From positions 33,887 to 97,886 of IMG/VR virus record IMGVR_UViG_3300025684_000015: 64,000 nucleotides of DNA; one strand, written 5' to 3'. How positions within the stretch are numbered: position 1 is the first letter of the stretch; every line of letters starts with the position of its first letter. Positions 5,545 through 31,961 of this stretch are shown one piece after another. The notes beneath the pieces were generated by a model, which saw only the letters and a program-made list of their open reading frames with translations, was not told the DNA's origin and ran no database searches. A program made the translations under genes and the position numbers. Source of the stretch: a virus.

Positions 5545-6045
5545 TTAGTTCTTTTCCCATCTATAAAATAGATGATCGTCAATAGTACCTATATAAGTTT
5601 TTTGTTTATTCCACGCTGGATCAACGTTTTTACTGTGATAGTGAGTTGCACCATCAGTTGGATCAATATTAGAATTACTAATTGATAATGCGCTATTGGC
5701 TATTTTTTTAGCATGTTCATACGCAGTTTTATCTCGAATTCTATCACTTAATCCATCGCAATACCAAGAAAAATGACACTTGTGTTTAATTGGTACGTGC
5801 TTATTATGAGTCTCTTTCCACCATTTAGAATGATATCCTTGGGTTACTACACCACAAATTGTATTAGGATATCTATCATCTTTGACTCTATTTAAAGTTA
5901 CCATAGCAACAGCGATCTGCCCACTAGAAGATTGATTGCGCGATTCAAAATATATATTTTTAGCAAGACATTCGAATTCTTTACTAGTGTTTACTTCTGT
6001 TGCTCCTAAAGAAAATAACAATGTTGCAATAATTTCGCTTAACAT
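5545..6045 (-). CDS. Cell wall hydrolase (SleB/Hydrolase_2 family)
   Basis: CLAKNIYFESR, VA.VTLNRV..RYPNTICGVV, FSWYCDG, GATHYH. Confidence 0.9.
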   Translation of the reverse strand: MLSEIIATLLFSLGATEVNTSKEFECLAKNIYFESRNQSSSGQIAVAMVTLNRVKDDRYPNTICGVVTQGYHSKWWKETHNKHVPIKHKCHFSWYCDGLSDRIRDKTAYEHAKKIANSALSISNSNIDPTDGATHYHSKNVDPAWNKQKTYIGTIDDHLFYRWEKN

Positions 6046-6281
6046 TCATTATTCTCATCAGCATAAACAATATTTTTGATTGGCCCTGTGCCTACTTCAA
6101 ATACATGACTAGTTTGTGCGGTATAGATGTTGCCATCCATAATCGATTTAATTCGAATGGTATCACCATCGTTAAGCACTTCACCAATAATTTCTTCATG
6201 TGGTTGTACAACACTAACTGTGACAGAGCTATTATAATAATCCCACATATAAACTTTCATTCCTTTAGTAATGCGTTTCAT
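6039..6281 (-). CDS. Hypothetical protein
   Basis: 80-aa ORF coupled to both neighbours. Confidence 0.55.
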   Translation of the reverse strand: MKRITKGMKVYMWDYYNSSVTVSVVQPHEEIIGEVLNDGDTIRIKSIMDGNIYTAQTSHVFEVGTGPIKNIVYADENNEC

Positions 6282-6796
6282 TATGCAGCCTCCTTTCGCT
6301 TTTGGCGTCGTTCAGCTAATAGCTTTTGGCGTCGTTCAGCTATAGCTGGATTTACTAATCCCTGACGAAGATATCTGTAAATTGTTTGAAAACAATCTCC
6401 ATGACCACGATCATTTTTTGACTTATCACGTAGATATTTAGGCATCTTAGATTTATGTGTATATTGTACATAATGAGATACTTCATGCGCAACCAAACAC
6501 ATTAGAATATCTGAATTATCAGACACTTTGATTTGCCCAATAGTAGGATCATCATTAAAACGGGCGTATTCGCTATATACTTTATTTCCGAATTGCCAAC
6601 ATTCAAGATTGATCTTAATCATGCGATATCCAGCCCAGCTGCGGCCGTTCTTACGACGATAAACATCTAAATGCTTAACTGCAGTATGGACATCTTTAGT
6701 TGTCAACCCAAGTTCATATTGTTTTTTCTTGAGATGGCGCATACAGATTTTAACCATTTCAGCAACGGGATTATAAAGTTCTTTATCAATAGCCAT
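6281..6796 (-). CDS. SprT-like zinc metalloprotease-fold protein
   Basis: HEVSH (HExxH) plus downstream HG..F. Confidence 0.6.
   Translation of the reverse strand: MAIDKELYNPVAEMVKICMRHLKKKQYELGLTTKDVHTAVKHLDVYRRKNGRSWAGYRMIKINLECWQFGNKVYSEYARFNDDPTIGQIKVSDNSDILMCLVAHEVSHYVQYTHKSKMPKYLRDKSKNDRGHGDCFQTIYRYLRQGLVNPAIAERRQKLLAERRQKRKEAA
6298..6342. repeat. 21-bp direct repeat x2 (encodes AERRQK twice)
   Basis: GCTTTTGGCGTCGTTCAGCTA at 6298 and 6322. Confidence 0.85.
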
Positions 6797-6802
6797 TTAC
6801 AT

Positions 6803-6920
6803 TCCTTTTTTCATTTTATAAGTATATTCTACCATACTTTTTAGCAAATGTAAACCCCTAAAATGCACTTTTTTAAAATAAAATGCATTTTTTTATCTGA
6901 AACATAATCAATAACTTAGG
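6803..6920 (-). promoter_or_regulatory. Early promoter/stem-loop repeat, copy 3, with IHF-consensus site
   Basis: TTTACA...TAGAAT, AAATGCA hairpin, AATCAATAACTTA at 6906-6918. Confidence 0.8.
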
Positions 6921-6932
6921 ATAAATACTTAA

Positions 6933-7508
6933 ATGAATGATTATGTTATCCCTCTAAGTAAGCTATCTTACGATAAAGAAGCATGCTTAGAATTTTTTAA
7001 AACTTTAGATTTTGGGAATCGGTGGGATGATAGGCCTACTGGCAGGTATATTCGTGCAGAAAATCCTGATGGCTATTTAGAAGTTCCATGCATTAAACAA
7101 ATCAATAATCAACTACCATATAGCGTCAATTTTCAATTTATTAAGATTGTTGGAGATTGGACAATGCCTATTCACATTGATACATATAGGACAGCTGTAT
7201 TAATGATACCACTATCACCAGATCCAGCACCAACTTATTGGTATGAAGAACCTGACTATATAAAAAAATTACGATTGTCTGGAGATAGAGATGCTTATAT
7301 TAAAGCTTCAAGAAAATTAAAAATAGATCCGATTTACACACATATTCATGATGGTATACCTACTATTATTAATTCAGAATTGCCGCATGGTACTGATACA
7401 CAGAATGGAATTGATCGGCTTACCATACAAATAGGAATGGCCAATACTGATACTGGACCATTCCTATCTTGGGATGAAATTTTTGAAAAAGTAAAAGACT
7501 TAGTCTAA
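6933..7508 (+). CDS. 2OG-Fe(II) oxygenase-like (DSBH) protein
   Basis: HID...PHG...RLTIQI facial-triad pattern. Confidence 0.6.
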   Translation: MNDYVIPLSKLSYDKEACLEFFKTLDFGNRWDDRPTGRYIRAENPDGYLEVPCIKQINNQLPYSVNFQFIKIVGDWTMPIHIDTYRTAVLMIPLSPDPAPTYWYEEPDYIKKLRLSGDRDAYIKASRKLKIDPIYTHIHDGIPTIINSELPHGTDTQNGIDRLTIQIGMANTDTGPFLSWDEIFEKVKDLV

Positions 7509-7802
7509 TTACTCTACTTCGCCTTTAAATACCCATGTGCGAACAATACCATTTTCATCATTATAGGCTGTTCTTGCATTAGCTGCGTCTTGATCACCAC
7601 TTTCAGACTCTGCTTTATATGCTAACCAAATTTCTTCGGTTTCTGCATAGTTTGTCAAAGTTAAAACCAAACCATCTTCAGACATAGCGCGCTCACGAAC
7701 AATCTTATATTCTGATTGTGTGTGTAGAATCATGTCATTTGTTGGTTGCCAAAATGGTACATCAACGCTAGGACGAGTAAATGTCATAACCGTTTTATAC
7801 AT
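7509..7802 (-). CDS. Hypothetical protein, last gene of transporter island
   Basis: 97 aa, TAATG-coupled to dctP. Confidence 0.65.
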   Translation of the reverse strand: MYKTVMTFTRPSVDVPFWQPTNDMILHTQSEYKIVRERAMSEDGLVLTLTNYAETEEIWLAYKAESESGDQDAANARTAYNDENGIVRTWVFKGEVE

Positions 7803-8758
7803 TATGCTGCTCCTTTAATATCTGCAACTAGGCCATTCTCAAAGAATGACTCATATTGCGGATAAACTGATTTAAGAGCTGTAGAAAATCTTGCTCTTTC
7901 TTTTTCTGACATAACAACAGTATCAATGCCAAAAGCTTTTGCTTCTGTTTGAACTCTAACATTATCTGCCAGTGAATCTTCTCTTTCGATTTTAGCTGCT
8001 TCTAATGAAGCTTCTTTCCATGCTTGTTGATCATTAGCAGACATAGAATCCCATAGTTGTTTATTCATTACAATTGAAGTAAGGAATAATGAGTGTGAAG
8101 TGTCATTAATATATTTAGCTACTTCATGCTGCTGTCTAGCAAAGAATCGAGCATATGTGGTAGTACCAGCATCAATACGACCATCTTTCATTGCTTGATT
8201 AATTTCATCAACTAACATTTGAACTGGTTTAGCTTGCACTGCTTCAAACATAGATTGAGATACTGGGCTTTTGGAGCAACCAATAGAAAGATCATAGAAA
8301 TCTTCAAGTCTTTCTAGAGTCTTTGTTGAAGGAATAATCCTATATCCACCTGAATATGTAAAAGCTAAACCTTTTAAATTAGATTTTTTCTCGAGCCATG
8401 AGAACAGATTTTGACCAATTTTTCCATCGAGTACTTTTTCGGCATGGCCATGATCTTCGAATAAGAATGGAAGCCCTAGGGAAAACATGTTCTTTTCAAA
8501 CTTCCCTAGAGTTTCTACATATGTTGTAGCAATATCAATATTGCCAGAGTTAACTAAACTAACAACTTTTTCTCTATCACTAGAGTGAATAGATAAGTTA
8601 CTACCAGTTTCTTTATTCCATTCGGATAGACTTAAAACCCGTAGATCATATCTACCATCAGTGCTATCTTTGATTTTTGCACTAAATACTTTTGCTGCGC
8701 GCAAAAATACATTGAATGGTTCGTGTGCAATAACCCACGTAAGTTGTTTAGTTTCCAT
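7802..8758 (-). CDS. dctP: TRAP solute-binding protein DctP-like, no signal peptide
   Basis: LPFLFEDH.HA.KVLDG, GLAFTYSGGYR motifs; paralog of 14808-15749. Confidence 0.8.
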   Translation of the reverse strand: METKQLTWVIAHEPFNVFLRAAKVFSAKIKDSTDGRYDLRVLSLSEWNKETGSNLSIHSSDREKVVSLVNSGNIDIATTYVETLGKFEKNMFSLGLPFLFEDHGHAEKVLDGKIGQNLFSWLEKKSNLKGLAFTYSGGYRIIPSTKTLERLEDFYDLSIGCSKSPVSQSMFEAVQAKPVQMLVDEINQAMKDGRIDAGTTTYARFFARQQHEVAKYINDTSHSLFLTSIVMNKQLWDSMSANDQQAWKEASLEAAKIEREDSLADNVRVQTEAKAFGIDTVVMSEKERARFSTALKSVYPQYESFFENGLVADIKGAA

Positions 8759-8764
8759 TTTAGT

Positions 8765-9718
8765 TTACTCTCCGAAAATTTCTCTGTATCCTGGCTCTAA
8801 TAGTTTTCTATTAGCAATATACGCATTCTTTAATCCTTGCGAATTAAGTGCTGCTTTATCTATATTTATCATTCTTTTTTCGCGTTCTGCCTTAGCTTTT
8901 TCACTTTGTACGGCTTTTGCTAAATTAATTTCATACCATTTTACAATTTCTGGATCAGTACCTTTTGCTAAAAGGGCACCGACTGTAGACATTTGTAAAA
9001 TTCCTGGATATGTTTCATTAACAGCTTCAGTATTAGGCAATGCTGGTAGTCTTCCATTAGACATTACCGCAATATACTTAATATCACCACTATTATAGAA
9101 CGCAACTGTTGGTGGCATACCACCTACCCAAATATCAACTTCACCAGCGGCTACGTCTTTAATAGCTTCTGCTGATTTTCTATATTTTACAAAGTTGACT
9201 TTATCTTTTGAGATACCTTCAGCTTCTAAAATAAGATTTGTTGCAACAATCTGATTAGGGAATGTTGTTGTGATATTTAGTGGTTTATTTGAAGTGCGAA
9301 TCCATTCAACCAATGCGGCTAATGAATTAATAGGTGTGTCGTGCTTTACGGCGATCACAATACTAGAAGTGATCAAGCCAGAAGTAAATTCGAAATCATT
9401 CGCCCAATCGTAATCAACCAACTCTGGGTTGGTGACTTCACCCATTACATGACTAATGCTTGTAGTCAAAAGCACGTGATGGCCATCTGCTGGGTAAGAT
9501 TTAAGAAAATGTTTTGTTCCGATAATACCAGCGGCACCTGGTTTAAACTCATAGATTACTTCAACACCAAGTGCTTCTTCAATTGACATAAAGCCAGTTG
9601 CATGAAGAGATGTTGGAGAAGAAGGAACCGTAACGGTAATAGGACCTGTTGGTTCCCATGCATACACAGTCGTGTTTGCTAGCACAGCAATAACGAAAGT
9701 CATAATATATTTTAACAT
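8765..9718 (-). CDS. tctC: Tripartite tricarboxylate transporter substrate-binding protein (TctC/Bug)
   Basis: Signal peptide, WEPTGPITVTVP, E.KPGAAG.IG, RLPALPN. Confidence 0.85.
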   Translation of the reverse strand: MLKYIMTFVIAVLANTTVYAWEPTGPITVTVPSSPTSLHATGFMSIEEALGVEVIYEFKPGAAGIIGTKHFLKSYPADGHHVLLTTSISHVMGEVTNPELVDYDWANDFEFTSGLITSSIVIAVKHDTPINSLAALVEWIRTSNKPLNITTTFPNQIVATNLILEAEGISKDKVNFVKYRKSAEAIKDVAAGEVDIWVGGMPPTVAFYNSGDIKYIAVMSNGRLPALPNTEAVNETYPGILQMSTVGALLAKGTDPEIVKWYEINLAKAVQSEKAKAEREKRMINIDKAALNSQGLKNAYIANRKLLEPGYREIFGE

Positions 9719-9763
9719 AATATTTTTTTTTCCTTTTAATGGGATTTATTTGATTTATACGAT

Positions 9764-9771
9764 TATTTATA
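9764..9771 (-). promoter_or_regulatory. T4-type late promoter TATAAATA
   Basis: Exact motif in intergenic gap upstream of tctC. Confidence 0.7.
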
Positions 9772-9774
9772 TTT

Positions 9775-10500
9775 TTACTTATTTGTCATTGAGCACAATT
9801 TAAGAACATTCTCCCAAGTCTTAGGAACGTTAACAACCAAATGAATTGATCCATCTTCCCAAGAATGAGTTCTATGCGTTTTCATTGTATCAACGTAATA
9901 AGCCCGACCAGGAATAATATCCTGTTTTTGGCCAGATTGACTCCATTCAAAAGAATCACTATCACATGCTTTCGATAAGAAAGCTACGATACGAATAGTT
10001 TTTCTAGTAATAAGTGGATAGTCTTTATGCGGTGGGAAATACCCACCCGCATTTACTTTAACTAAGAAAGTTCTACCAAGTTTGTCAAATGGTTCCAACA
10101 ACTCATGGAGAGAAGTTAGAGCATGATATACGTCTGTCTTATGGTTGAAGTCTTGGTCAAGTAAAAACTCGTTTCCAGTCTTAATTCTAGATTGTGGGAT
10201 AGAAAGATTTTCCGAATGAGAACTTCCTTCTAATCCAACTAGAACAAGACCTTCTCTATTATTTGGTGCCCATGCTTTTTTCAAGTATGGTTCCCAATCG
10301 TTATCAAATAACGATAATTCTTTATTTAATTGATCTAAATTAATTCTTGGTTTTAATAGTTCGAATTCACCCATTGCTTGCAATTGTAGCTCGCACATAA
10401 GATCTTCTTGCGTGGGTGTAAACTTTTCTGGCTTACGAGAATACTTCTCAAACCAGTTACCAGTATTTTCACCATCACCTTTATTTTTGATTTCTGTCAT
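9775..10500 (-). CDS. Aspartyl/asparaginyl beta-hydroxylase-like 2OG-Fe(II) oxygenase
   Basis: GGYFPPHKD...PGRAYYVDT.KTH...HLVVNV. Confidence 0.65.
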   Translation of the reverse strand: MTEIKNKGDGENTGNWFEKYSRKPEKFTPTQEDLMCELQLQAMGEFELLKPRINLDQLNKELSLFDNDWEPYLKKAWAPNNREGLVLVGLEGSSHSENLSIPQSRIKTGNEFLLDQDFNHKTDVYHALTSLHELLEPFDKLGRTFLVKVNAGGYFPPHKDYPLITRKTIRIVAFLSKACDSDSFEWSQSGQKQDIIPGRAYYVDTMKTHRTHSWEDGSIHLVVNVPKTWENVLKLCSMTNK

Positions 10501-10532
10501 CGTAATCCCAATTCATCGCAAATAAAATTGAT

Positions 10533-11954
10533 CTAAACATTCTTTTTCATCCTGTACATATTAGCTGATATGATTGCCAATATACATAACCATATTCCTA
10601 TTGCTATATTACTATGTATAAAGATAGAAAAGTCCCCTTGAGAAATACTAAGAGATCTTCTAAAATATTCTTCAAGCATTGGACCTAGAATTAATCCTAA
10701 AATAAATGGGACAACATTAATATCTAATTTCATAAACAGATAACCGAGAGCAATAAAAGCACAAAGAATAATTAAATCATTTGAGTTATTATTTACTCCA
10801 TACGTTCCAATAAAACAAACAGAAATAATAATAGGATATAATATTGTGTATGGTATTTTAATTAAGCTTACCCATATTTTAATCAACGGATAATTTAAAA
10901 TAAGAAGAATAATATTTCCAAAGAAAATACTGTAAACTAAAGACCAAAATAAATCAGGATGGTTTTGAATTACTAATGGACCAGGAACAATTCCAAATAC
11001 AATCATGGCACCAAGAATCAAAGTCATTGCCATATTTTCTGGTAATCCAAGACTTAATAAAGGAATAAGACTGCCTTGAGCAGCAGCATTATTTGCAGCT
11101 TCTGGAGCAGCAACTCCTTCTATAACTCCGGTGCCTAAATTTTTATTAATATTTTTTTCAACAGTATAAGCAGCATATGTTGCTCCTGTTAGTCCACCAC
11201 CTGGAATAATACCAAGAAACCCACCAATAAGAGTTCCTCTCAATGCTGCGGGAACAAATTGTTTTAAATCTTCTTTTGTTGGAAGAATTGCTAAATTTTT
11301 AGTCTGTACAATAGACATAGTATTTAATGATAAATTTCGAAATACTTCGGCGAATGCAACCATTCCAATTGCAGCTGCAACAAAACTTATTCCATCATAT
11401 AGATCATCAATATTGAATACAAATCTTTCAAGTCCACTATTTAAATCAACACCAACAGTTCCTGTCAATATACCAACCATAACTGCCGCTAATCCAGTTA
11501 AAAGATTATCACTTAGAATAGATGTAACACCAACAAATGCTAAACATAATAATGCAGTATATTCAGCTGGACCAAATTTAAAAGCAAGGTCAGCTAATGG
11601 TGGAGAAATAATTGCCATAGCAATTACCATAATAATACCAGCAATAAAGGAAGAAATAGCTGATACCATAATGGCTTTTCCAGCTAATCCTTTCTTTGCT
11701 AATTTATGACCATCAATACAAGTCATAATAGCACTATTTTCGCCTGGTGTATTTAATAGAATCGCTGTAGTAGATCCACCATATTGAGATCCATAATAGA
11801 TTCCAGCTAACATAATAATACCAGAAATAGGATCCATTCCAAAAGTAATTGGCAATAATAATGCAATTGTTGTTGATGGACCGAGGCCAGGTAATACACC
11901 AACGGCAGTGCCAGCAAGACATCCAATTAATAAAAATATTAATTGCTCTACCAT
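10533..11954 (-). CDS. tctA: Tripartite tricarboxylate transporter permease TctA
   Basis: G.LPGLG, YGSQYGGS..AILLN.PG, GVAAPEAANNA; multi-TM. Confidence 0.95.
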   Translation of the reverse strand: MVEQLIFLLIGCLAGTAVGVLPGLGPSTTIALLLPITFGMDPISGIIMLAGIYYGSQYGGSTTAILLNTPGENSAIMTCIDGHKLAKKGLAGKAIMVSAISSFIAGIIMVIAMAIISPPLADLAFKFGPAEYTALLCLAFVGVTSILSDNLLTGLAAVMVGILTGTVGVDLNSGLERFVFNIDDLYDGISFVAAAIGMVAFAEVFRNLSLNTMSIVQTKNLAILPTKEDLKQFVPAALRGTLIGGFLGIIPGGGLTGATYAAYTVEKNINKNLGTGVIEGVAAPEAANNAAAQGSLIPLLSLGLPENMAMTLILGAMIVFGIVPGPLVIQNHPDLFWSLVYSIFFGNIILLILNYPLIKIWVSLIKIPYTILYPIIISVCFIGTYGVNNNSNDLIILCAFIALGYLFMKLDINVVPFILGLILGPMLEEYFRRSLSISQGDFSIFIHSNIAIGIWLCILAIISANMYRMKKNV

Positions 11955-12364
11955 AATGGTAATGCTTTAAGTACTGTGAGTTTTAATATAATTGCTAAGA
12001 CCGAAGAAACGGCTGTTGAGATAATACATGATTTCCATGTAAAGTCTTTATGAAGAGTTGAAACTAACGGAACTAAAACCACAATAGAAGCTAAAATACC
12101 AAAATACTTAAACGCAAGAATTCCTAAAAATACAGCACCCAGCATTTTAATAAGTACAAATATTTCTAAATGTAATACTTCATTATCATTTTGTGATCGA
12201 AATGCGTATACTGTTGAAATAATAATTAAAATAATAGAAATAATAAATGGGTACATTCCTGGACCCATATTTGCAAGTGTTCCTAATTGCATATTAGATG
12301 ACATAATTAAAAATATAAATCCAATCATAAAAAGTAATATAGAAGTATATTGTTTTTTAGTCAT
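11948..12364 (-). CDS. tctB: Tripartite tricarboxylate transporter small permease TctB
   Basis: Four TM helices, MGPG.YP motif, C-terminal LP, adjacent to tctA. Confidence 0.85.
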   Translation of the reverse strand: MTKKQYTSILLFMIGFIFLIMSSNMQLGTLANMGPGMYPFIISIILIIISTVYAFRSQNDNEVLHLEIFVLIKMLGAVFLGILAFKYFGILASIVVLVPLVSTLHKDFTWKSCIISTAVSSVLAIILKLTVLKALPLW

Positions 12365-13383
12365 TATTCATATCCACAAAAATCATTATCTTCAACATAG
12401 TATTGTTTAATAAACTCTGTATCAAATGGTTTATAAAAGGATTGTAAAGAATTTGATTCAGATACAATCATATCAGGTTTATTTGTAAAGAATAATTTAC
12501 CCATAGACTGCCATTTTCTTTTGTAAATATGATAGTCTTTATCCTTTGTATAATTATATATTAGATCTTTATAGAGTGATTTATCTGGAGATTTATTTAA
12601 GATTGACCATCTTTGAATATCGTGAGAAGAGTAAAATGTGTCAAATTCTTTATGATAACCCAATCTAGGCTTATATTTTTCTTTAGCGTTTAACCATCTA
12701 AAATTGAAATTAAACCACCAACTAAAATCTTCAATAGTATCAATTGGCCGTGGAGAACTTTTACCAGTTTTTAACATAGCATTGATAAATGCTTCAGCCG
12801 CAATTTTATCAAATCCCAACTCAGCACAAACATTATATAGATTAGTTTTTGTTGCTGGTTTAGTAGTCCAAGATTTATCAATTCGTGAAAGCATCATGCC
12901 ACTAATAATTTGATCTGCATGTTCTGCTTGAATAGTAATACCATCATTATCTTCAGATAAATGTTTTTCAATTGATAAAAGTTTAAAGTTTGGTAAAATA
13001 TAAGTGTAATAAAATTTAGGATTCTCTTTTATAGAGTCACGATTCATTACAATTGTTATTTGATCTAAATTAATATTAGACTTAAGAAATGATATAACCA
13101 TTAAGGTTGAATCAATTCCGCCACTCCATTGTAAATATAAATGTTTACCTGTATCAACTAATTCTAAACAACGACTTTGTAATACATCTTCAAATGTTCC
13201 AACAGCTTTAACTGTAGGAATTTTATATTCTTCTGGCATATATTGCTTTAATGGTGTTACTAATGTTTCTGTTCTATCTGACATCCAACTAAAACGCATA
13301 ATTTTGCGCATAGCTCTTTCGTATAATACCATATCAGGAGTATCTAGAGCACGTAATAATATTGTTGAAGCATGTAGAATCAA
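12364..13383 (-). CDS. PP-loop ATP pyrophosphatase (asparagine-synthetase/ANH-like), paralog B
   Basis: WSGGIDST PP-loop; HADQI; shares DF.WW..FN and Q.WS..N with paralog A. Confidence 0.7.
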   Translation of the reverse strand: MILHASTILLRALDTPDMVLYERAMRKIMRFSWMSDRTETLVTPLKQYMPEEYKIPTVKAVGTFEDVLQSRCLELVDTGKHLYLQWSGGIDSTLMVISFLKSNINLDQITIVMNRDSIKENPKFYYTYILPNFKLLSIEKHLSEDNDGITIQAEHADQIISGMMLSRIDKSWTTKPATKTNLYNVCAELGFDKIAAEAFINAMLKTGKSSPRPIDTIEDFSWWFNFNFRWLNAKEKYKPRLGYHKEFDTFYSSHDIQRWSILNKSPDKSLYKDLIYNYTKDKDYHIYKRKWQSMGKLFFTNKPDMIVSESNSLQSFYKPFDTEFIKQYYVEDNDFCGYE

Positions 13384-13988
13384 TTGACGTATACCATATT
13401 ATCAATTAGACGTTTTAGTTTTGGTAATTCTTGCTGACTACTAATGTCATTTACTTTTTGAATTAATTTATAAACTGAACCATCAATTTTAGCTTTACCA
13501 TAAAAATAAGAATCATTTTCCATATCAATAAATTTTTTAGCCAATTCAAAAGATAATCCTGCTTGACTTGCAAAACATTCTATCATTTTATCATTATATA
13601 AAATATAGCGATCAGTATATCTACTCATAAATTTTTCGGCCATATCATCTATTAAAATAAGACATTCTTTTTTTATATTTAATATCTTTTTTGTCTTTTT
13701 AAATCTTATTGTTTTATGAGATACTAGTAAATCTACTTTTTGAATTTGATAGAATTCATCGATATCACTAGGTTTGGCGACAGAACCTTCACCAGGTCTT
13801 ACCATTCCTACGTTTTGTTGTAGTAAAATTTGATCTATATTTGGATTAAAAGTTGATGTTGTTCGTACTCGCATTACACTTGTATTTAATGCGTACTCAC
13901 AAAGTTTATTTGCTATATCATAATTAGAAGCTTCGCAGTAGATCAGGTGTTCTTCCTGATCTACCACAAAGATATATGTATTAATCAT
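13380..13988 (-). CDS. Hypothetical partner of PP-loop protein B
   Basis: ATGA-coupled to PP-loop gene; N-terminus resembles 17940-18575. Confidence 0.6.
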   Translation of the reverse strand: MINTYIFVVDQEEHLIYCEASNYDIANKLCEYALNTSVMRVRTTSTFNPNIDQILLQQNVGMVRPGEGSVAKPSDIDEFYQIQKVDLLVSHKTIRFKKTKKILNIKKECLILIDDMAEKFMSRYTDRYILYNDKMIECFASQAGLSFELAKKFIDMENDSYFYGKAKIDGSVYKLIQKVNDISSQQELPKLKRLIDNMVYVN

Positions 13989-14779
13989 TTTTTGCGAATT
14001 CTAAAAGTAACTACTTTGCGATCAGCTTCTGCAAAAATTGAAGCTGGTCTAGTTGTGTGTAATCTACGAGAATCATAACAAATAATACGACCTGGCTTAG
14101 GACTTACTACTTTACAAGTATCGCCCCAGTCAATTGGAAAACCTCGTTGTTGGCCACCTTTTTGATATCTTTGGTCGTCACCAGTTTCTGTATGATTGCT
14201 GGTGTAGAACATATTATCCGCAAACCATGTTGGATACCATACAGGGTTAGCAACATACATACATGTATATGTACGGTCATTCGATTCATCGGGTTGATCT
14301 CGATGAATTCCATGAGTATGCTTATAGTGTTCATTTGGCTGAGCCGCGGCGTACACTCTCCAACCCTGATCCATATTGGGATCTAATGTTGGTGGTGCAG
14401 TGTATTTATCTTTTATATACTCATCTGGAGAATTTTCTGCTACTGTGCCTTCGGGCTTACCAGCAATTTCAAATTCACCATCAAATTGCATATTGATACA
14501 TTGCCACAATTTATAAATTGGATCATGAGCTTTTAGACTTTCTTCGTCAGAAGCAAAATGAGCTCTTGGCATGAATAAATGGCGGGGCTCTTCCAGCCGC
14601 TTGGGGTAATCATTGGCTTTCCATTTACCAGGAACATATTCATGAATTTCATGAAAGTTGCTAGTTTTCTGCCTTTTCCAAGCGGCTGTCCAAGTTTGTT
14701 CTAATAGGTATTCCCATACTGAATGTCTAAGATCAGCTGGAACAGCGTCATCGACAACTCTTACTTCATAATCAATCAT
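13985..14779 (-). CDS. 2OG-Fe(II) oxygenase (prolyl-hydroxylase-like)
   Basis: IHRD...SPKPGRII.YDSR.LH..RP...RKVVTFR. Confidence 0.8.
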   Translation of the reverse strand: MIDYEVRVVDDAVPADLRHSVWEYLLEQTWTAAWKRQKTSNFHEIHEYVPGKWKANDYPKRLEEPRHLFMPRAHFASDEESLKAHDPIYKLWQCINMQFDGEFEIAGKPEGTVAENSPDEYIKDKYTAPPTLDPNMDQGWRVYAAAQPNEHYKHTHGIHRDQPDESNDRTYTCMYVANPVWYPTWFADNMFYTSNHTETGDDQRYQKGGQQRGFPIDWGDTCKVVSPKPGRIICYDSRRLHTTRPASIFAEADRKVVTFRIRKK

Positions 14780-14807
14780 TCAAATCACATCCTATTTTTA
14801 TTTTAGC

Positions 14808-15749
14808 TTAAGACTTTTGAATTTTCTCAATGATATTATCACTGAAAACATTCATGTACTTTGTGTACAGATGAGCAGTAGCTGCTTTGAACTTAGCAGT
14901 TTCTGATTCAGCCATCTTAACAATTTTAATGCCTTGGGTCTTACATTGATCTACGATACCATCGATAGAAGCAACTGATTCACGACGCTCTAAACGAGCA
15001 GCATTCAATGCAGCGTCTTTCAACACGGCTTGAGTCTTTTCATCTAGACCAGCGTAGAATTCTTTACCAACAATAATTGAGGTAAGGAAAAGTGAATGTG
15101 CAGTGTCATTAACTGTACCAAATGCTTCACCCTGCTTAAGAGGAAGAATACGTACATATGTAGACTCACCACCATCAATAACACCATTTGCATGTGCTTC
15201 ATTCATTTCTTCAAGTTCAACTGAATCAACAACATTTGCGCCTAGAGCTTTAAATGTGTCTACAGCAACAGGAGACTTAGAAGTACGAATGCTCATACCT
15301 TCAAAAGCAGCGACGGTATCTAATTCTTTTTCAGACGGGATAACACGGTATCCACCTGAATATGTAAAGGCCAAACCTTGTACAGGTGATTTTGCCTTAA
15401 GTCCATCCAATAGAGACTGGCCGATAGAGCCTTCTAGAACTTTATCTGCATGGTCATGATCGCGGAACAAGAAAGGCATGTCAAGTGCATACATATCTTT
15501 ATTCCAATCACCAAGCCATGTAGTATACATCTGCGATGCTTCTACAACGCCATCTTCCATTAACTGGAGAAGATCTTGTTTAGTGACTTTTTCGCCACCA
15601 TTATACTTATTTGAGTACTCAGTCAAAGAAAGAATTTCGATGTCTAAAGCACCATTTGTTTGCTCAAGTACTTGCGCTTTGAATCTTTCTGCAGCGCGCA
15701 GAAACAAATCAATAGGCTCATGAGCAATAACCCAACGAATGGTTTTCAT
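14808..15749 (-). CDS. dctP: TRAP solute-binding protein DctP, no signal peptide
   Basis: MPFLFRDHDHA.KVLEG, GGYR, G.SIRT, FKALGA, GVIDGGE. Confidence 0.85.
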   Translation of the reverse strand: MKTIRWVIAHEPIDLFLRAAERFKAQVLEQTNGALDIEILSLTEYSNKYNGGEKVTKQDLLQLMEDGVVEASQMYTTWLGDWNKDMYALDMPFLFRDHDHADKVLEGSIGQSLLDGLKAKSPVQGLAFTYSGGYRVIPSEKELDTVAAFEGMSIRTSKSPVAVDTFKALGANVVDSVELEEMNEAHANGVIDGGESTYVRILPLKQGEAFGTVNDTAHSLFLTSIIVGKEFYAGLDEKTQAVLKDAALNAARLERRESVASIDGIVDQCKTQGIKIVKMAESETAKFKAATAHLYTKYMNVFSDNIIEKIQKS

Positions 15750-15801
15750 TGTTAAACTCCTAATGTTAACACGTGTTTACGTTTTGGTTTGCAACCAACT
15801 T

Positions 15802-15809
15802 TATTTATA
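15802..15809 (-). promoter_or_regulatory. T4-type late promoter TATAAATA
   Basis: Exact motif upstream of dctP (AGGAG RBS follows). Confidence 0.7.
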
Positions 15810-15813
15810 TGTT

Positions 15814-16743
15814 TTATTTCTTAATATTGTCGTTATGCTTAATTAAAAGCTTTTCAACGATCGCAATATTTTCTAAATAGAATGCACCAATATCTTTACC
15901 ATCAAATACCGGTGAATTCATGTCTGATAGTCCAAATACTTTATCTTTACCAAGATTTTTTGTAGCAGCATTTAATACATATCCAAGCTTCAATCTTTTT
16001 AGTGTTGGCATTTCTGAAGAAGCAACAGTAATATTAAATACTTGTGGAGCAGATACTCCCTGTTCAGCTAATGTTGCTACTTCTGGAAGAAGTGGATGGC
16101 GGGAAGTACACGAAGCCGCGGCGGCTTGAATATTTGGATTTTTAGTTTTCATTTGGATATAGTTTTTAGCTTTTTCTACTACCATATTGACTGATCCATC
16201 TCCTGCCATTAACACCAATCCTTCATAATTAGATTTAAAAATTACGTAATTGATTTCGGTTTTAGCTGCTTCACCAATTTGGAGAGATGTCAAATGCGTA
16301 GCATTACCAATACCTACACCACCAACGGTCATGACATCTTTACCAGCATTTCGCATAGCCTCAATTGAATCTCCTAGATTCGAAATTACAATCCAGCATG
16401 CAGATCCTAAAGCATGAATAGGAACATATTTTTCACGATCTAATTTACCAGATCTAGTATGTTCTACATATTTTGGTGCGATAATAGATAATCTATTTTG
16501 TGGAGATGCATCCATTTGTTTTACAGCAATAATTTGCTGACCACCTGGTTTATTTTCAAGATGAAATTGAAATTGATCTTGAATCTTATTAGCTTCTTCG
16601 ACAATTGCTAAATACGCGGGTGTTCCGCCATGAGACGCTGAATACGGACTTTGAATATAGATGTCTTCTTTTGCAAAAGCGTGTGTAGACCCTAGTGTAA
16701 ACGCAACTGTCGCGCTAACCATTAAAGTTTTTAAGTTTTTCAT
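15814..16743 (-). CDS. tctC: TctC/Bug-like periplasmic binding protein (divergent)
   Basis: Signal peptide (AFA), ENKPGG, G.GNATHL, RHPLLPEVATLAEQG. Confidence 0.8.
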   Translation of the reverse strand: MKNLKTLMVSATVAFTLGSTHAFAKEDIYIQSPYSASHGGTPAYLAIVEEANKIQDQFQFHLENKPGGQQIIAVKQMDASPQNRLSIIAPKYVEHTRSGKLDREKYVPIHALGSACWIVISNLGDSIEAMRNAGKDVMTVGGVGIGNATHLTSLQIGEAAKTEINYVIFKSNYEGLVLMAGDGSVNMVVEKAKNYIQMKTKNPNIQAAAASCTSRHPLLPEVATLAEQGVSAPQVFNITVASSEMPTLKRLKLGYVLNAATKNLGKDKVFGLSDMNSPVFDGKDIGAFYLENIAIVEKLLIKHNDNIKK

Positions 16744-17980
16744 AAAAATACTCTTCTATTCCTTCGTTGTTAAAATATTTCATTTGATAATTTTCATCTA
16801 AACCAAACATATTATCTAGTTCATCGTTTATCGCAATTCGATGCCGATTCACAATGATTTGTTTAGATGGTATTTTCATTTTGTACCAATAGTACCAATC
16901 ATTGGCATCTAAACTATGTATATAGTCTTTAGCTGCCATTTTATAACGACCCTGTGTTGTGCCTAAGATTTTTTGGCCGTTATTATTATTTACCATAGAC
17001 CATAATTGAAAGTCTACAGCGTTAAACCAATTAATTTGTTTTTCGTATATTTTACTACGATCAACACCTGTTGATTGAATGCTTCCAGCCCTTAGCGCAC
17101 AATGCATATATTTTGGATTAAAGATAATCCACCAAAAGAAATCATGTAAGGTAGTTACTTTGCACTTTGCTGTTTCAATATTTCTAACCATTTTGTTATA
17201 ATACATTTCGCCAAATGCTTTATCAAGAGATGATTTTTCGGTATTAGAATATTTAAAATATCTACCATCTAAACAAAGATTAAAATACTTAATAATTGCT
17301 TGTTTATATTCGCTATAATGAACTTCTGGGTTGTCAATATTATCTTTTAACGCATATGCTTCTTTTGTATAATCAAAATAATAAGGAATTGACGGATATA
17401 ATTTAGTACCTAATTCAGTACCAAATAGAGCATCACCTTGATCACCTACAATAACTGTATAGTTTTGTTCCACAACAGTACGTCTCATATCAAATTCTTT
17501 ACTGTTATGAATCTTAAGTTTATCTTTAATAAATCTATTATAGAAGAATTCATTCTCAATAATTGAGTCAAAACTCATTGAAATTGTAATATTATCTAAT
17601 TGTTTATCTGTAAGATTTTTAATTAATGCCGCAACAATTGCTGTTGAATCTATACCACCAGAATATAGAATAAGAAATTGTTCATCTGTATTATCAATTC
17701 TTTTTGCGATATTTAAAGCTGTTTCATCACTAATTTGCGCAAATGATTTATTAAAGTCTTTTGATAAATCTGGCATATCATAACCAGGCGGTAATACCAA
17801 ATCATCACCCCATGGAGTATCCCACTCTCCATCTCTTGGAGAATATGAATTATACCCAAATGCTAATGAGATATTATAAAAAAACTTAGCTCCATCGTTT
17901 TGAAAGTTATATTTTTTCATAACTTTACGATGGTAAAATTTAAAAGGTGTATAATGTATTAGAAAAAAACGGTTTTGCAT
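16715..17980 (-). CDS. PP-loop ATP pyrophosphatase (asparagine-synthetase/ANH-like), paralog A
   Basis: YSGGIDST and GDQGDALFG motifs of the AS-B synthetase domain; no glutaminase domain; start uncertain. Confidence 0.75.
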   Translation of the reverse strand: MQNRFFLIHYTPFKFYHRKVMKKYNFQNDGAKFFYNISLAFGYNSYSPRDGEWDTPWGDDLVLPPGYDMPDLSKDFNKSFAQISDETALNIAKRIDNTDEQFLILYSGGIDSTAIVAALIKNLTDKQLDNITISMSFDSIIENEFFYNRFIKDKLKIHNSKEFDMRRTVVEQNYTVIVGDQGDALFGTELGTKLYPSIPYYFDYTKEAYALKDNIDNPEVHYSEYKQAIIKYFNLCLDGRYFKYSNTEKSSLDKAFGEMYYNKMVRNIETAKCKVTTLHDFFWWIIFNPKYMHCALRAGSIQSTGVDRSKIYEKQINWFNAVDFQLWSMVNNNNGQKILGTTQGRYKMAAKDYIHSLDANDWYYWYKMKIPSKQIIVNRHRIAINDELDNMFGLDENYQMKYFNNEGIEEYFYEKLKNFNG

Positions 17981-18575
17981 ATCGACTCAAATTCTCATAA
18001 AATTTTCTTTTTCGTAGGTTGCTTGTTTTAGATTTACTAAAGGCAACCATGATGTTGTCATATAATTCGTCAACATCTTTTGAATAATAAATTAGCTCGT
18101 AAATTGCTTCTTTAAATCCATTCTCAAAGTCTTTGTGACCACCATCAGATGCATGATAACCCATATCTTTATATGTTTCAATTCCCTTTGAATCTACAAA
18201 AGAAAAAATAGATTCGTACGATGATGGAAGTTCCATTTCAGTTTTTATAGTAGATTTTATAATTACAAACGTCATGCGAATATAATCTAAATGAGACTCA
18301 AAGATGTCTTGTGGAGTGTTCTGCTGAGGACCCAAATCTACATAAGAATCTTGTGGTTTAATTACTAGATATGGATATGGAGAAGACTGGCGGTATCCCT
18401 TTGGGTTACCTAGTGTCCAATTAGTACATACGCTATTATCAATTTCAGGCAATGTGACTGGAATTATGTTACACAATATTTTAGAGGTAAGTACTGTGGC
18501 TGTCTCGTATAGAGAGTGTACATCTTGATCGATAATTAAAAATCGTTCAATAGTATTTGAATATAATCCATGCAT
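17940..18575 (-). CDS. Hypothetical partner of PP-loop protein A
   Basis: Adjoins/overlaps PP-loop gene; FLIIDQDVHSLY resembles FVVDQEEHLIY of 13380-13988. Confidence 0.6.
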   Translation of the reverse strand: MHGLYSNTIERFLIIDQDVHSLYETATVLTSKILCNIIPVTLPEIDNSVCTNWTLGNPKGYRQSSPYPYLVIKPQDSYVDLGPQQNTPQDIFESHLDYIRMTFVIIKSTIKTEMELPSSYESIFSFVDSKGIETYKDMGYHASDGGHKDFENGFKEAIYELIYYSKDVDELYDNIMVAFSKSKTSNLRKRKFYENLSRYAKPFFSNTLYTF

Positions 18576-18602
18576 AATATAATATAACCTAAACGTGATT
18601 AA

Positions 18603-19058
18603 TCACATCTCTTTTATCACACCAATGTGATTATCTTGTTCTGTGCCAGAAATGGTTTGGAATCCATTCTGTAATGCCCAATCTAATTTACTTATTTTCA
18701 TCCAACCAAACATTTTTAGATAATTTGACCAATGTTTTTCATAAGCTTCTTCTAAAAGAAGAGCGCCTAATCCCTGATGTCGCCATTCTTTACGAATATT
18801 TATAGTACGAAAACGAATGGTAGATATATCCCACTCATATAATTGAGTAACTCCTATAATCCCATCAAAGTCTACTTCAGGATGTCGATCATATAGCCCA
18901 TAACATTTGGATATAGGATTATCTATACTAGAACGAAATGGCCCTAATTGGCTAACCAGTTGTCTATAGTTTTTATTGGGATCATTGAAGTGATCTACTT
19001 CTTTCCAATATTCTACAATTTGATCAAAGGAGATCTCTTCAACTTCAATTCCATCCAT
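18603..19058 (-). CDS. GNAT family acetyltransferase
   Basis: WRHQGLGALLL acetyl-CoA binding motif A; NGF near C-terminus. Confidence 0.75.
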   Translation of the reverse strand: MDGIEVEEISFDQIVEYWKEVDHFNDPNKNYRQLVSQLGPFRSSIDNPISKCYGLYDRHPEVDFDGIIGVTQLYEWDISTIRFRTINIRKEWRHQGLGALLLEEAYEKHWSNYLKMFGWMKISKLDWALQNGFQTISGTEQDNHIGVIKEM

Positions 19059-19403
19059 TTACGTTTGAGTACCTTTATTTGCTAAAACGTTAGTACTAAA
19101 TTTATCACCAGATGTAATTACACATGTGGTACCACGAGTTTTATTTACTACTATAAATGTCCATGTTAATGTATCATAATTAATCCACAATGAATGAAAA
19201 AGACCTTCACCAGTCGATGTTTCACTAGGTGCTACAAATATAATTTCTTCATCATATTTATTTTTTAAATTTTCTACAATATCATCTGTTTTTCCACAAA
19301 ATATTGGTAGTTGCATTGTGCTCACCCGAGGAGTAGCATCATTAGCAAAAACTAAAGTAGAAGCACAAACGAGTAAAGTAAACATTATTACATATCTTTT
19401 CAT
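19059..19403 (-). CDS. Secreted hypothetical protein
   Basis: Signal peptide, CG...KY.EE...TWT...TC pattern. Confidence 0.65.
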   Translation of the reverse strand: MKRYVIMFTLLVCASTLVFANDATPRVSTMQLPIFCGKTDDIVENLKNKYDEEIIFVAPSETSTGEGLFHSLWINYDTLTWTFIVVNKTRGTTCVITSGDKFSTNVLANKGTQT

Positions 19404-19419
19404 AATGATACTTCCTCTT

Positions 19420-19668
19420 AAAAAAACGAATGGTAGGTTATTCTGTTACTAGGAAACCTACCGAAACCCTATCCGACTATGCTGCTAGAGCGTAATCTTG
19501 AGGAGCAAAGTTATCGTTTGCATTTACTTTTGTGATTCTCCGCTGCCTTCACGTATCTGTCGATCCTATTTCGCCCCCATCATAAGCACACTCAGTAAAT
19601 GTGTTTATGGTGGAGGCGGTGGGTACTGCCCCCACGTCCAGCCTACATCCATCCAGTTTCACTGAATC
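19420..19668 (-). ncRNA. ssrA: Two-piece (circularly permuted) tmRNA, alphaproteobacterial type
   Basis: Acceptor piece ends ...GTGGG-GGCAGTA-CCCAC-CGCCTCCACCA (CCA at 19610-19608); 29-nt hairpin spacer; coding piece starts GGGGGCGAAATAGGATCGAC at 19578; G3.U70 pair; tag ANDNFAPQDYALAA* at 19521-19477; outer ends approximate. Confidence 0.93.
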
Positions 19669-19673
19669 ATTTT

Positions 19674-19681
19674 TATTTATA
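19674..19681 (-). promoter_or_regulatory. T4-type late promoter TATAAATA driving tmRNA
   Basis: Exact motif immediately upstream of the acceptor piece. Confidence 0.7.
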
Positions 19682-19685
19682 CTAC

Positions 19686-19814
19686 TTACTTACAAAGATC
19701 TTCATACTTCGTGGAGTGTACTCTATGTTTTGACATGTCTCTACCTAAATATCCTGGCGTTTTTTCTTTACTATTAAACATTTTAGATAATAACTTAACA
19801 AGTTTTTTGAGCAT
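19686..19814 (-). CDS. 42-aa basic small protein (MLKKLVKLLSKMFNSKEKTPGYLGRD...)
   Basis: GGAGAG RBS, amphipathic N-terminus; below ORF-track cutoff. Confidence 0.5.
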   Translation of the reverse strand: MLKKLVKLLSKMFNSKEKTPGYLGRDMSKHRVHSTKYEDLCK

Positions 19815-19849
19815 ATTTCTCTCCATTTCAGTTAGTATATTGTCGGAAT

Positions 19850-19915
19850 ATTAAGGGTATCCCCCTCTTTCCGGATTAACTCTATTATTATACCACATAA
19901 AAATGTATTTGTAAA
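19850..19915 (-). promoter_or_regulatory. Sigma70-type promoter plus conserved purine-rich leader
   Basis: TTTACA-17-TATAAT then AGAGTTAATCCGGAAAGAGGGGGATACCCTT; similar element at 47819-47884. Confidence 0.7.
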
Positions 19916-19925
19916 CAGTTTTTTT

Positions 19926-19933
19926 TATAAATA
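19926..19933 (+). promoter_or_regulatory. T4-type late promoter TATAAATA
   Basis: Exact motif upstream of the + strand secreted-protein operon; GAGG RBS follows. Confidence 0.75.
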
Positions 19934-19978
19934 AGATTGAAATACAAACTTTTATTATCTATTTTATGAGGATTTAGA

Positions 19979-31091: not shown

Positions 31092-31092
31092 A

Positions 31093-31953: not shown

Positions 31954-31961
31954 CGGTTCCC

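Follow-up and report, generated by a model that had tools for sequence, protein, structure and literature searches.

A 12-kb island in a marine T4-like phage encodes a tricarboxylate-type importer, leaderless DctP-family proteins and asparagine-synthetase-like enzymes

A 12-kb island of a marine T4-like phage was found to encode a full tricarboxylate-type (TTT) importer along with two leaderless DctP-family proteins and two asparagine-synthetase-like ATP enzymes of the PP-loop type. In hundreds of uncultured phages, a genuine linkage joins the binding-protein genes to the PP-loop genes. As a tentative reading, to which we give somewhat less than an even chance, a cytoplasmic binder of anionic metabolites would feed an ATP-dependent amide ligase, and in this phage a virus-encoded TTT importer would supply the pathway, with expression at least partly late. 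All positions refer to the window, the whole stretch of 64,000 nt that was analysed.

Setting and authenticity of the island

The gene order and minus-strand coupling described in the original prediction were confirmed. Each open reading frame lies at its predicted position, on the minus strand except for 6933..7508 (+), and several have stops and starts that overlap or abut. That prediction held in part: gene positions, the main transporter labels and the promoter-like boxes stood, the 2OG and GNAT labels proved weak, and X recurs by position only. The island may be seen as three concatenated cassettes, each recurring separately in uncultured aquatic phages. One would consist of a GNAT gene followed by X, PP-loop A, an exported TctC-like protein and a leaderless DctP; another of a leaderless DctP followed by PP-loop B, which a pair of inserted genes separates in this island; and the last of TctB, TctA, a cupin-like protein, an exported TctC, a leaderless DctP and a 97-aa protein.

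The island is phage DNA, as T4-like core genes occupy its flanks, late-promoter-like motifs occur within it and the arrangement recurs in independent metagenomes. Contigs of an independent marine sample tile positions 5833-20500 with 0-4 mismatches each and a largest gap of about 0.5 kb, and they span the gene junctions that they reach, including those between cassettes; hence the arrangement is not a chimera. A chimeric assembly and the capture of an intact operon from a host, named beforehand among the outcomes that would speak against the prediction, are thus very improbable. TctA relatives with a named cellular source, mostly Burkholderiales, are about 50% identical and would fit a host origin. 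Against it, in addition to the tiling, stand the presence of the stretch in sequencing runs from 13 studies, relatives at 91-97% protein identity on separate contigs, the even GC content over the whole island and the phage-type promoter boxes within it. Further, contigs of a marine RNA library cover the 97-aa gene, DctP1, TctC1 and the start of DctP2, which favours the proposed pathway. Contaminating DNA is a possible source of these contigs, and this would count the other way.

Leaderless binding proteins and PP-loop enzymes

DctP2 (14808..15749, minus strand, 313 aa; Pfam DctP 2e-44) and DctP1 (7802..8758, minus strand, 318 aa; Pfam DctP 1e-46) are 41% identical, and no signal peptide was found on either. 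DctP2 starts with M-K-T-I-R and continues directly into WVIAHEP, a pattern seen in 120 of 120 relatives (297-336 aa) among the matches listed; all 120 are leaderless and 56-91% identical, in support of the preferred reading. The two proteins are therefore presumably cytoplasmic. As the phage record also contains no DctQ or DctM (the DctM search had a positive control), we conclude that the DctP proteins do not act as import receptors, contrary to what had been postulated.

Both proteins match PF03480 over its full length, as do the TRAP binders SiaP, IseP and 4P47, from which they differ in lacking a signal peptide and DctQ/M and in being phage-encoded next to an ATP-dependent enzyme. DctP2 retains both ligand-binding arginines; its R135 and R155 align with R152 and R173 of 4P47, which correspond to the conserved arginines bound to the ligand anion in TRAP binders of known structure (PMC11668362). 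Asn213 (4P47 numbering) appears to be Ser in the phage DctP. DctP1 carries I-G-C where DctP2 has I-R-T, with Gly at the position of the salt-bridge Arg, whose conservation across the family alignment is 90% or more; its absence here speaks against the preferred reading. Neither the leaderless state nor the Gly substitution had been noticed earlier.

PP-loop A (16715..17980, minus strand, 421 aa) and PP-loop B (12364..13383, minus strand, 339 aa) both contain SGGIDS and share further family motifs; at 20% identity they are members of a single family. The AF2 model of PP-loop A (pLDDT 84.5) resembles the synthetase half of asparagine-synthetase-type enzymes, the glutaminase domain being absent. 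Its VIA matches were TsnB9 (Z 12.3, 274 residues aligned), beta-lactam synthetase (10.6), human AsnS (10.1) and carbapenam synthetase (8.9). These matches support the adenylation class originally proposed, and we suggest that the PP-loop enzymes are of the kind that adenylates a carboxylate and forms an amide. The family scores below the cut-off of Pfam Asn_synthase, a model that 5 of 61 relatives do match, in agreement with this assignment. The family comprises 1,327 representatives (50%-identity) at E<=1e-10.

AsnB-type tailoring synthetases adenylate a carboxylate and then form an amide. TsnB9, the beta-lactam and carbapenam synthetases and the lasso-peptide cyclases have the PP-loop motif in common with the island enzymes and include the best structural matches. 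They retain an N-terminal glutaminase-like domain, active or dead, whereas in the island family a stretch of only about 80 unrelated residues stands at the N-terminus, and X is a separate partner. X(A) (17940..18575, minus strand, 211 aa) overlaps the start of PP-loop A by 41 nt and has no known family or fold; its AF2 model (pLDDT 77) gave no structural match above noise, the best reaching Z 6.4. In 72 of 78 related loci, the PP start has a co-directional ORF (120 aa or longer) whose end is no more than 120 nt away, and 50 of these 72 partners share one BLAST cluster with X(A), among whose relatives Met1 is the sole invariant residue. X(B) (13380..13988, minus strand, 202 aa) takes the partner position of PP-loop B; no similarity to X(A) was detected, the best profile match having 14% probability. 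The claim that the unit occurs twice thus applies to the PP-loop and DctP proteins, while X(A) and X(B) correspond by position only.

The importer, accompanying genes and promoter-like boxes

TctA (10533..11954, minus strand), the large membrane subunit, is full length (Pfam TctA 1e-140, profile positions 1-423 of 423), and the small membrane subunit TctB (11948..12364, minus strand) is above the Pfam cut-off (TctB 1e-9, 39.2 bits). TctC1 (8765..9718, minus strand, 317 aa) is a canonical TctC binder (Pfam TctC 6e-26) with a signal peptide ending in VYA. TctC2 (15814..16743, minus strand, 309 aa) has a signal peptide too, a hydrophobic leader ending in AFA, and falls below the Pfam cut-off (TctC 1.6e-5; 25 vs 27 bits). 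It is of a phage-cassette type, with homologues at 42-44% identity coming after PP genes in three loci (L009, L013 and L016); pairwise similarity between TctC1 and TctC2 was not significant.

Homologues of TctA on metagenome contigs were 92% and 86% identical, followed by a group at 51-64%; some of these contigs agree in length with contigs on which PP and DctP relatives lie. TctA relatives occur on 24 IMG/VR contigs. TctB, TctA and DctP are contiguous in loci L080, L081 and L089, as the preferred reading would have it. Against its import step, TctA is absent from three complete genomes bearing the core cassette; import is therefore an add-on outside the core. Hence the predicted TTT importer is real, with TctC2 sub-threshold, but accessory. 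Like TctABC systems and orphan "Bug" TctC proteins, the island has complete TctA and TctB and two exported TctC-like proteins. It differs in that the importer genes belong to a lytic T4-like phage and are interleaved with those for ligases and cytoplasmic binders, in that the island contains late-promoter-like boxes, and in that TctC2 is a divergent phage type.

The remaining labels are less firm. The probable GNAT acetyltransferase (18603..19058, minus strand, 151 aa) matches Acetyltransf_7 (8e-5) below the cut-off (23.3 vs 27 bits), a weak call; its homologues adjoin relatives of the 241-aa gene in the TctA loci L080 and L081. Three genes had been labelled 2OG, and only the possible 2OG-Fe(II) oxygenase at 13985..14779 (minus strand, 264 aa) has a Pfam match, again sub-threshold (2OG-FeII_Oxy_3 2e-4, 22.6 vs 27 bits; phrog_274 4e-9). 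The 241-aa protein (9775..10500, minus strand), without match in Pfam and PDB searches, is possibly an AspH/LpxO-like cupin dioxygenase. The lead comes from the Atlas, where the nearest clusters are viral and Asp_Arg_Hydrox (PF05118) is found on 11% of members in one; homologues lie near TctA in loci L080, L081, L089, L094 and L102. The 191-aa convergent gene at 6933..7508 (plus strand) was without a match in searches of Pfam, PHROGs, NCBIfam and PDB, and its homologues lie near TctA in L094 and L102. The postulated hydroxylation and acetylation steps hence build on weak domain calls. The 97-aa protein (7509..7802, minus strand) belongs to a small cassette-accompanying family (family profile 4e-16) whose members adjoin DctP or X-PP in a number of related loci.

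Two T4-type late-promoter-like TATAAATA boxes exist in the island as had been noted, both on the minus strand and placed like late promoters, at 15802..15809 (52 nt before DctP2) and 9764..9771 (45 nt before TctC1). The number of copies in the window is at chance level (11 vs 10.6 expected). Eight of the 11 fall within the intergenic 6.5% of the window, mostly 19-63 nt ahead of a start (P about 5e-8).

Linkage across phages, the proposed pathway and its alternatives

The leaderless DctP family was found on 432 IMG/VR contigs. A PP-family gene is present in 72 of 80 sampled loci, which is the opposite of the scattered homologues that would have spoken against a system. In 69 the PP gene and DctP share a strand and are no more than 80 nt apart, with the PP gene downstream in 59 and upstream in 10. 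Most PP genes following DctP (47 of 53) score higher to PP-loop B than to A. The order X-PP-(TctC)-DctP is kept in more than 12 loci with PP proteins only 35-40% identical to PP-loop A, so conservation of both kinds favours the preferred reading. Against it, DctP occurs in only about 18 of 78 PP-loop A loci, and a DNA polymerase gene adjoins in 20 of the 78; as the PP family extends far beyond the DctP pairing, the ligase does not need the binding protein. In Bdellovibrionota, DctP relatives of the same clade are followed by an unrelated carboxylate-adenylating AMP-binding enzyme (14 loci), which supports our reading and looks like an equivalent arrangement built on another enzyme fold.

In the pathway we propose, the functional core would be the cytoplasm-retained DctP-family binder, holding an anionic, probably carboxylate, metabolite, and the glutaminase-less enzyme, which would adenylate the carboxylate with ATP and join it to ammonia or an amine to give an amide. 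X may be a non-catalytic, fast-evolving specificity or adaptor subunit, the cupin/2OG-like proteins and GNAT may tailor substrate or product, and the exported TctC proteins with TctBA could here also bring in the substrate, or a precursor of it, from seawater. Of the original import-activate-modify interpretation, phage origin, linkage and ligase class stood; import by DctP and import as part of the core did not, and tailoring and the targets stayed tentative.

Those targets were virion protein, tRNA or DNA, for which we found no specific support. A related alternative, which we consider unlikely, is that the ligases amidate a carboxylate on phage DNA or a virion or tail-fibre protein, with DctP delivering a small partner such as an amino acid. 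The nearest precedent for the cassette, a partial one, is CmoY of Synechococcus phage S-B43, an ATP-dependent amide ligase and asparagine-synthetase homologue without glutaminase domain that couples glycine to DNA 5-carboxymethylcytosine (PMC12783734). CmoY resembles the island enzymes in being phage-encoded and glutaminase-free and in coupling an adenylated carboxylate to an amine. It travels with CmoA and CmoX rather than leaderless DctP and X, is not among the 50 best BFVD fold matches, and when two family members were compared by tblastn with 50,697 phage records (S-B43 presumably included), nothing came up at E<=1e-3. A C5 DNA methylase homologue does adjoin a TET-associated glycosyltransferase (TAGT) in this phage, which also has a thymidylate-synthase-like gene, yet a C5 DNA methylase was found in 0 of 5 cassette-bearing phage genomes (3 complete), and a C5-methylase/TAGT homologue within 10 kb of the cassette in 0 of 182 scanned viral loci. 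The late-type boxes, X-PP just upstream of the DNA polymerase gene in one clade, and the commonest phage class, where the DctP-PP pair has a radical SAM gene on one side and tail-fibre genes on the other, also fit macromolecule modification; a constant macromolecular neighbour is absent. No paper describing the binding-protein/PP-loop cassette was found in the literature search, so the claim of no described equivalent held apart from CmoY and the earlier listing of tctA as a putative viral auxiliary gene (PMC4164917).

It is also improbable that the binder sponges up an anionic host molecule, such as a regulatory or defence signal, for the ligase to neutralise. The presumably cytoplasmic high-affinity binding fold does show much stronger conservation (56-91% identity) than the enzyme it is paired with, X evolves rapidly, as a host-virus conflict would predict, and the core cassette needs no transporter. 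Defence or counter-defence genes were not recognised beside the cassette, however, and the frequent neighbours (BKACE, SDR, AMP-binding, Rieske and desaturase-like) suggest metabolism rather than signalling. We give similarly little credence to unconnected auxiliary genes, in which binders boost nutrient uptake by the host, like PstS of cyanophages, and PP-loop genes are unrelated neighbours in a hypervariable region. The tctA listing, the mosaic nature of islands and the possibility that exported TctC proteins dock on host TctAB would agree with this; the frequent, mostly abutting DctP-PP pairs, the overlapping or abutting island genes and the lack of signal peptides and DctQ/M do not. Cyanophage PstS and similar proteins are phage-supplied periplasmic binding proteins able to feed a membrane transporter. 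The same could apply to the two TctC proteins, with the difference that this phage also brings the membrane subunits and its DctP-type proteins are presumably not exported.

The island and its phage

Every open reading frame that the original prediction placed in the island (6933-19058, mainly minus strand) was found in its position. The minus-strand genes abut or overlap, by 41 nt between X(A) (17940-18575) and PP-loop A (16715-17980), 29 nt between PP-loop A and TctC2 (15814-16743), 4 nt between X(B) (13380-13988) and PP-loop B (12364-13383), and 7 nt between TctB (11948-12364) and TctA (10533-11954). Pfam matches were strong for DctP1 (7802-8758), DctP2 (14808-15749), TctC1 (8765-9718), TctB and, over its full length, TctA, and fell just under the curated cut-offs for TctC2, the GNAT gene (18603-19058) and 13985-14779 (2OG-FeII_Oxy_3). 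For the GNAT label the domain match is weak, at 23.3 bits against a cut-off of 27. A 2OG-Fe(II) oxygenase is expected to show a recognisable double-stranded beta-helix domain and an HxD...H triad, and here the three genes so labelled fared unevenly: 13985-14779 gave a sub-threshold match at 22.6 bits, 9775-10500 had no Pfam match and as its sole lead the aspartyl/asparaginyl hydroxylase-type cupins (PF05118) from the Atlas, and 6933-7508 (plus strand) had no Pfam match either. None of the three had a usable PDB sequence match, and the HxD-like motifs were seen by eye only. The PP-loop label was borne out, with both proteins carrying SGGIDS and aligning over their whole length as one family at 20% identity; the claimed two-fold repeat of a gene unit holds for these proteins and, in the case of X(A) and X(B), which show no similarity, by position only.

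A chimeric assembly is extremely improbable, as contigs from an independent sample cover 5833-20500 apart from short gaps, show 0-4 mismatches and run across the junctions between the cassettes. In marine metagenomes, runs of 13 different studies contain the 10-kb core almost unchanged, and the GC content is even along the island. In a marine RNA library, short contigs match the 97-aa gene (7509-7802), DctP1, TctC1 and the first part of DctP2. As libraries of this kind may include DNA, the hint of transcription is weak.

The source record is 97.9 kb long, with a completeness estimate of 57% (IMG/VR), and the window, its bases 33887-97886, encodes a T4-type DNA polymerase, helicases, major head protein, portal, sheath and terminase. 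The nearest head proteins are those of phage C48C1 (66%) and Pelagibacter phage HTVC008M (61%). Immediately upstream of the island lies a permuted tmRNA of the alphaproteobacterial type (19432-19700, minus strand), which was not called by ARAGORN and clearly matched by Rfam (alpha_tmRNA, 102.6 bits, E 1.6e-27); it suggests an alphaproteobacterial host. Between the tmRNA and the GNAT gene is a 114-aa protein with a signal peptide (19059-19403, minus strand; phrog_25396, unknown function), which has a homologue in the TctA locus L084. About 0.9 kb from the low-coordinate end of the island, downstream of its minus-strand genes, is a SleB-type cell-wall hydrolase (5545-6045, minus strand; Hydrolase_2, 2.5e-23), probably an endolysin or virion lysin. 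Outside the window, at G000:C1:5501-13095, about ten minus-strand genes of 190-275 aa stand in a row, several with similar N-termini, and may be a paralogue array.

The two TATAAATA boxes predicted inside the island do exist, and they precede TctC1 and DctP2. A T4-type late promoter is defined by this box shortly upstream of late genes together with gp55-dependent transcription. The overall frequency of TATAAATA in the window is no higher than chance, but its positions are strongly non-random: 8 of 11 copies are intergenic, where intergenic sequence makes up 6.5% of the window (P about 5e-8), and most of these lie 19-63 nt before a start, including those of sheath and other structural genes. 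The 5' end of the tmRNA also contains a TATAAATA box, at 19674-19681.

Linkage of binding-protein and PP-loop genes across phages

Gene contexts were drawn from scans of IMG/VR and GTDB; in IMG/VR, scans by single proteins gave nothing and the matches came from alignment-based scans. The scan with the DctP alignment returned 432 contigs, and co-occurrence in viral databases, which had been proposed as a check, was confirmed by a PP-family gene in 72 of the 80 loci kept. In 69 loci this gene lies on the same strand within 80 nt of DctP, downstream in 59 and upstream in 10; the downstream genes resemble PP-loop B, and the upstream type, which follows X, resembles PP-loop A. The linkage is asymmetric. 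The DctP binder almost never occurs without a ligase, whereas of 78 loci retrieved by PP-loop A only about 18 contain DctP, so that the ligase family is broader than the pairing. In 20 of these 78 loci X and the PP gene stand just upstream of a DNA polymerase gene.

In some twelve loci a PP gene is followed by a TctC-like gene with a signal peptide. IMG/VR has 24 contigs with TctA, frequently together with TctB, TctC and, directly behind TctA, a leaderless DctP; homologues of the GNAT gene, 9775-10500 and 6933-7508 are often present on these contigs too. Three complete genomes with terminal redundancy have the DctP-PP pair and no TctA. Since the three cassettes (GNAT/X-PP-loop A-TctC-like-DctP; DctP-PP-loop B; TctB-TctA-cupin-like-TctC-DctP-97-aa protein) occur separately in other phages, the island is a concatenation of them. 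It is the richest version found among the loci compared, bringing together an importer, exported binders, cytoplasmic binders and two ligases, and is for this reason a good starting point for biochemistry. Among 50,697 deposited phage records, megablast with the island gave no match or bacterial-type records filed as phage, and tblastn with TctA, PP-loop A, a distant PP member and DctP2 likewise found nothing or bacterial-type records.

The most frequent phage class has its DctP-PP pair flanked by a radical SAM gene on one side and tail-fibre genes on the other, and a small DUF2061 membrane protein is often present as well. The radical SAM protein, of 467 aa, stands before the pair together with a protein of 103 aa, and the tail-fibre genes after the pair have Peptidase_S74 chaperone domains (e.g. 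L149:8300-9703, L162:9687-9998 and L126:5385-6581, in sampled viral loci). Neighbours in related phages include fatty-acid-desaturase-like, Rieske, cupin and FkbM-methyltransferase proteins, as well as BKACE, short-chain dehydrogenase, AMP-binding and nitronate-monooxygenase-like proteins. The related islands look like a sizeable small-molecule metabolic toolkit of uncultured T4-like phages; examples of such metabolic genes are L052:5585-6436, L009:3278-4642, L006:6114-6851 and L011:4602-5435.

Binding proteins, importer and PP-loop enzymes

DctP1 and DctP2 each begin right at strand one of the mature fold, with no space for a leader between it and the upstream gene. All 120 of the listed DctP relatives have WVIAHEP within about the first ten residues; they are 56-91% identical and nearly all 310-318 aa long. 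A TRAP transporter consists of an exported DctP with the membrane subunits DctQ and DctM, of which DctM was the one searched for. Here the DctP domain is present without a signal peptide, and DctM is absent from the 97.9-kb record, estimated to be 57% complete, in a search whose control was positive. In solved TRAP binders two conserved Arg hold the ligand carboxylate or anion (PMC11668362). DctP2, which is located between the two ligase genes, retains both as R135 and R155, the counterparts of R152 and R173 in 4P47 (PMC11668362), while DctP1 keeps the first and has Gly at the second, the salt-bridge position, so that only DctP2 has the two-Arg feature. For the TTT system all parts are encoded, namely TctA (469 bits, full length), TctB (39 bits) and an exported TctC in TctC1 (92 bits, signal peptide), with TctC2 under the cut-off.

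Membership of the PP-loop proteins in the PP-loop ATP pyrophosphatase superfamily, which is marked by an SGGxDS pyrophosphate-binding loop ending the first strand of a Rossmann-like domain, is supported by SGGIDS, invariant in 61 relatives, and by PDB profile matches that fall on the motif. The AlphaFold model of PP-loop A (pLDDT 84.5) resembles many PP-loop enzymes; Foldseek against the PDB gave weak rows only. In VIA-align comparisons with synthetase halves TsnB9 ranked first (Z 12.3, 274 aligned), followed by beta-lactam synthetase (10.6), human AsnS (10.1) and carbapenam synthetase (8.9), and GMP and NAD synthetases ranked lower (Z 8.1 or less); the model has the fold of an AsnB-type synthetase domain. 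Pfam PF00733 (Asn_synthase) reached 14.2 bits against a cut-off of 21, and weak matches to it at E<=0.01 were present in 5 of the 61 PP-family relatives. From this fold ranking and these weak matches, the PP-loop proteins are predicted to be carboxylate-adenylating, amide-forming AsnB-type enzymes. The two proteins (339 and 421 aa) have no N-terminal Ntn glutaminase domain, residue 2 is not Cys and the PP-loop begins near residue 105; the nucleophile would have to be free ammonia or an amine. The family is mostly viral, has no Pfam model and comprises 1,327 representatives at 50% identity (E<=1e-10), all about 330-435 aa; no X-PP or DctP-PP fusions were seen among the best 150. Two more SGGxDS families, of about 390 and 300 aa, occur in the same phage islands, often beside TctA or TctC (e.g. 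L004:14368-15534 and L014:11201-12154), with up to four different PP-loop paralogues per phage.

A co-directional ORF of at least 120 aa, ending no more than 120 nt from the start of the PP gene, was present in 72 of 78 related viral loci, and BLAST places 50 of these 72 in a single cluster that includes X(A). Met1 is the sole invariant residue of the family. For the X(A) model (pLDDT 77) the best fold match, at Z 6.4, is helical-bundle noise and not convincing, the X(A) profile found nothing in the PDB, and X(B) fits no X cluster (best 14% probability). We read X as a non-catalytic partner.

A proposed pathway and its alternatives

Phage auxiliary genes are usually read singly, and parts of this island are of known kinds. 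The gene tctA is a listed putative viral auxiliary gene (PMC4164917, PMC6359870); a survey of pelagimyophages mentions no TTT, TRAP or asparagine-synthetase-type genes (PMC7029224). In line with the original prediction that no equivalent had been described, our literature searches found no account of a leaderless DctP with a PP-loop ligase. The recurrence of this tightly linked set in hundreds of uncultured marine and freshwater phages suggests an unrecognised cytoplasmic pathway that joins a transporter binding protein to an amide-forming enzyme.

We propose that a cytoplasmic DctP-type protein would bind an anionic metabolite and that the PP-loop enzyme, as an ATP-dependent amide ligase, would work with it. 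X would act as a specificity subunit, the cupin-like and GNAT proteins would do the tailoring, the phage TTT importer and exported TctC proteins would supply the substrate, and expression would be at least partly late. To this reading as a whole we give slightly less than even weight. More tentatively, the binding protein without an export signal could be the substrate-holding subunit of the ligase, inside the cell. If so, it would be a binding-protein-dependent enzyme system of a previously undescribed kind, spread across hundreds of aquatic phages, which this phage plugs into its own TTT importer and whose binder-clade relatives in predatory bacteria adjoin a different adenylating enzyme. 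The identity of the ligand would reveal which host metabolite is captured or converted as these abundant phages infect oligotrophic bacteria, would assign a first function to a protein family that counts more than 1,300 sequence clusters and might uncover a novel role for the solute-binding fold.

The main alternative, that the ligase modifies DNA or a virion protein, has a precedent in CmoY (PMC12783734) and we consider it unlikely. On the minus strand (29886-33286 and 26285-26956) the phage has a C5 cytosine DNA methylase homologue directly beside a TET-associated glycosyltransferase (PF20691), a thymidylate-synthase-like gene and ThyX, and it may hypermodify cytosine; a Tet/JBP search of the record gave no hit, and neither did its control. 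However, the PP-loop proteins have no detectable similarity to CmoY, and tblastn of phage records gave no match for the PP family. In the CmoA/CmoX/CmoY system the ligase gene comes with genes for a Cx-SAM synthase and a C5 carboxymethyltransferase; the C5 methylase homologue of this phage sits 11 kb away. A scan of 182 viral loci found no methylase closer than 10 kb to the cassette, and a C5 methylase is missing from each of five genomes that carry the cassette; given these scans, a link to DNA modification through the C5 methylase was ranked lower. That the genes serve to sequester a metabolite or signal seems improbable to us, and we doubt to the same degree that they are unconnected auxiliary genes. 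Lipid or envelope modification was also considered, in view of the lead to AspH/LpxO-like proteins, of neighbours that resemble desaturases and of the MBOAT genes seen in predatory bacteria.

Among the cellular genomes of GTDB, the DctP clade occurs chiefly in Bdellovibrionota and Bacteriovoracaceae and to some extent in Myxococcota and Elusimicrobia, and signal peptides are present in some of these copies and absent from others. An AMP-binding (adenylate-forming) enzyme comes next after the DctP-clade gene in 14 loci, and an MBOAT acyltransferase is near it in 8. The clade thus lies beside carboxylate-activating enzymes of two unrelated folds, which supports the functional logic; the cellular pairing with AMP-binding enzymes may be ordinary uptake followed by activation. 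In the predatory bacteria (GTDB loci L184-L251) the DctP-clade gene is often followed by an AMP-binding enzyme and an MBOAT acyltransferase, and this looks like an undescribed envelope-acylation or uptake-activation set.
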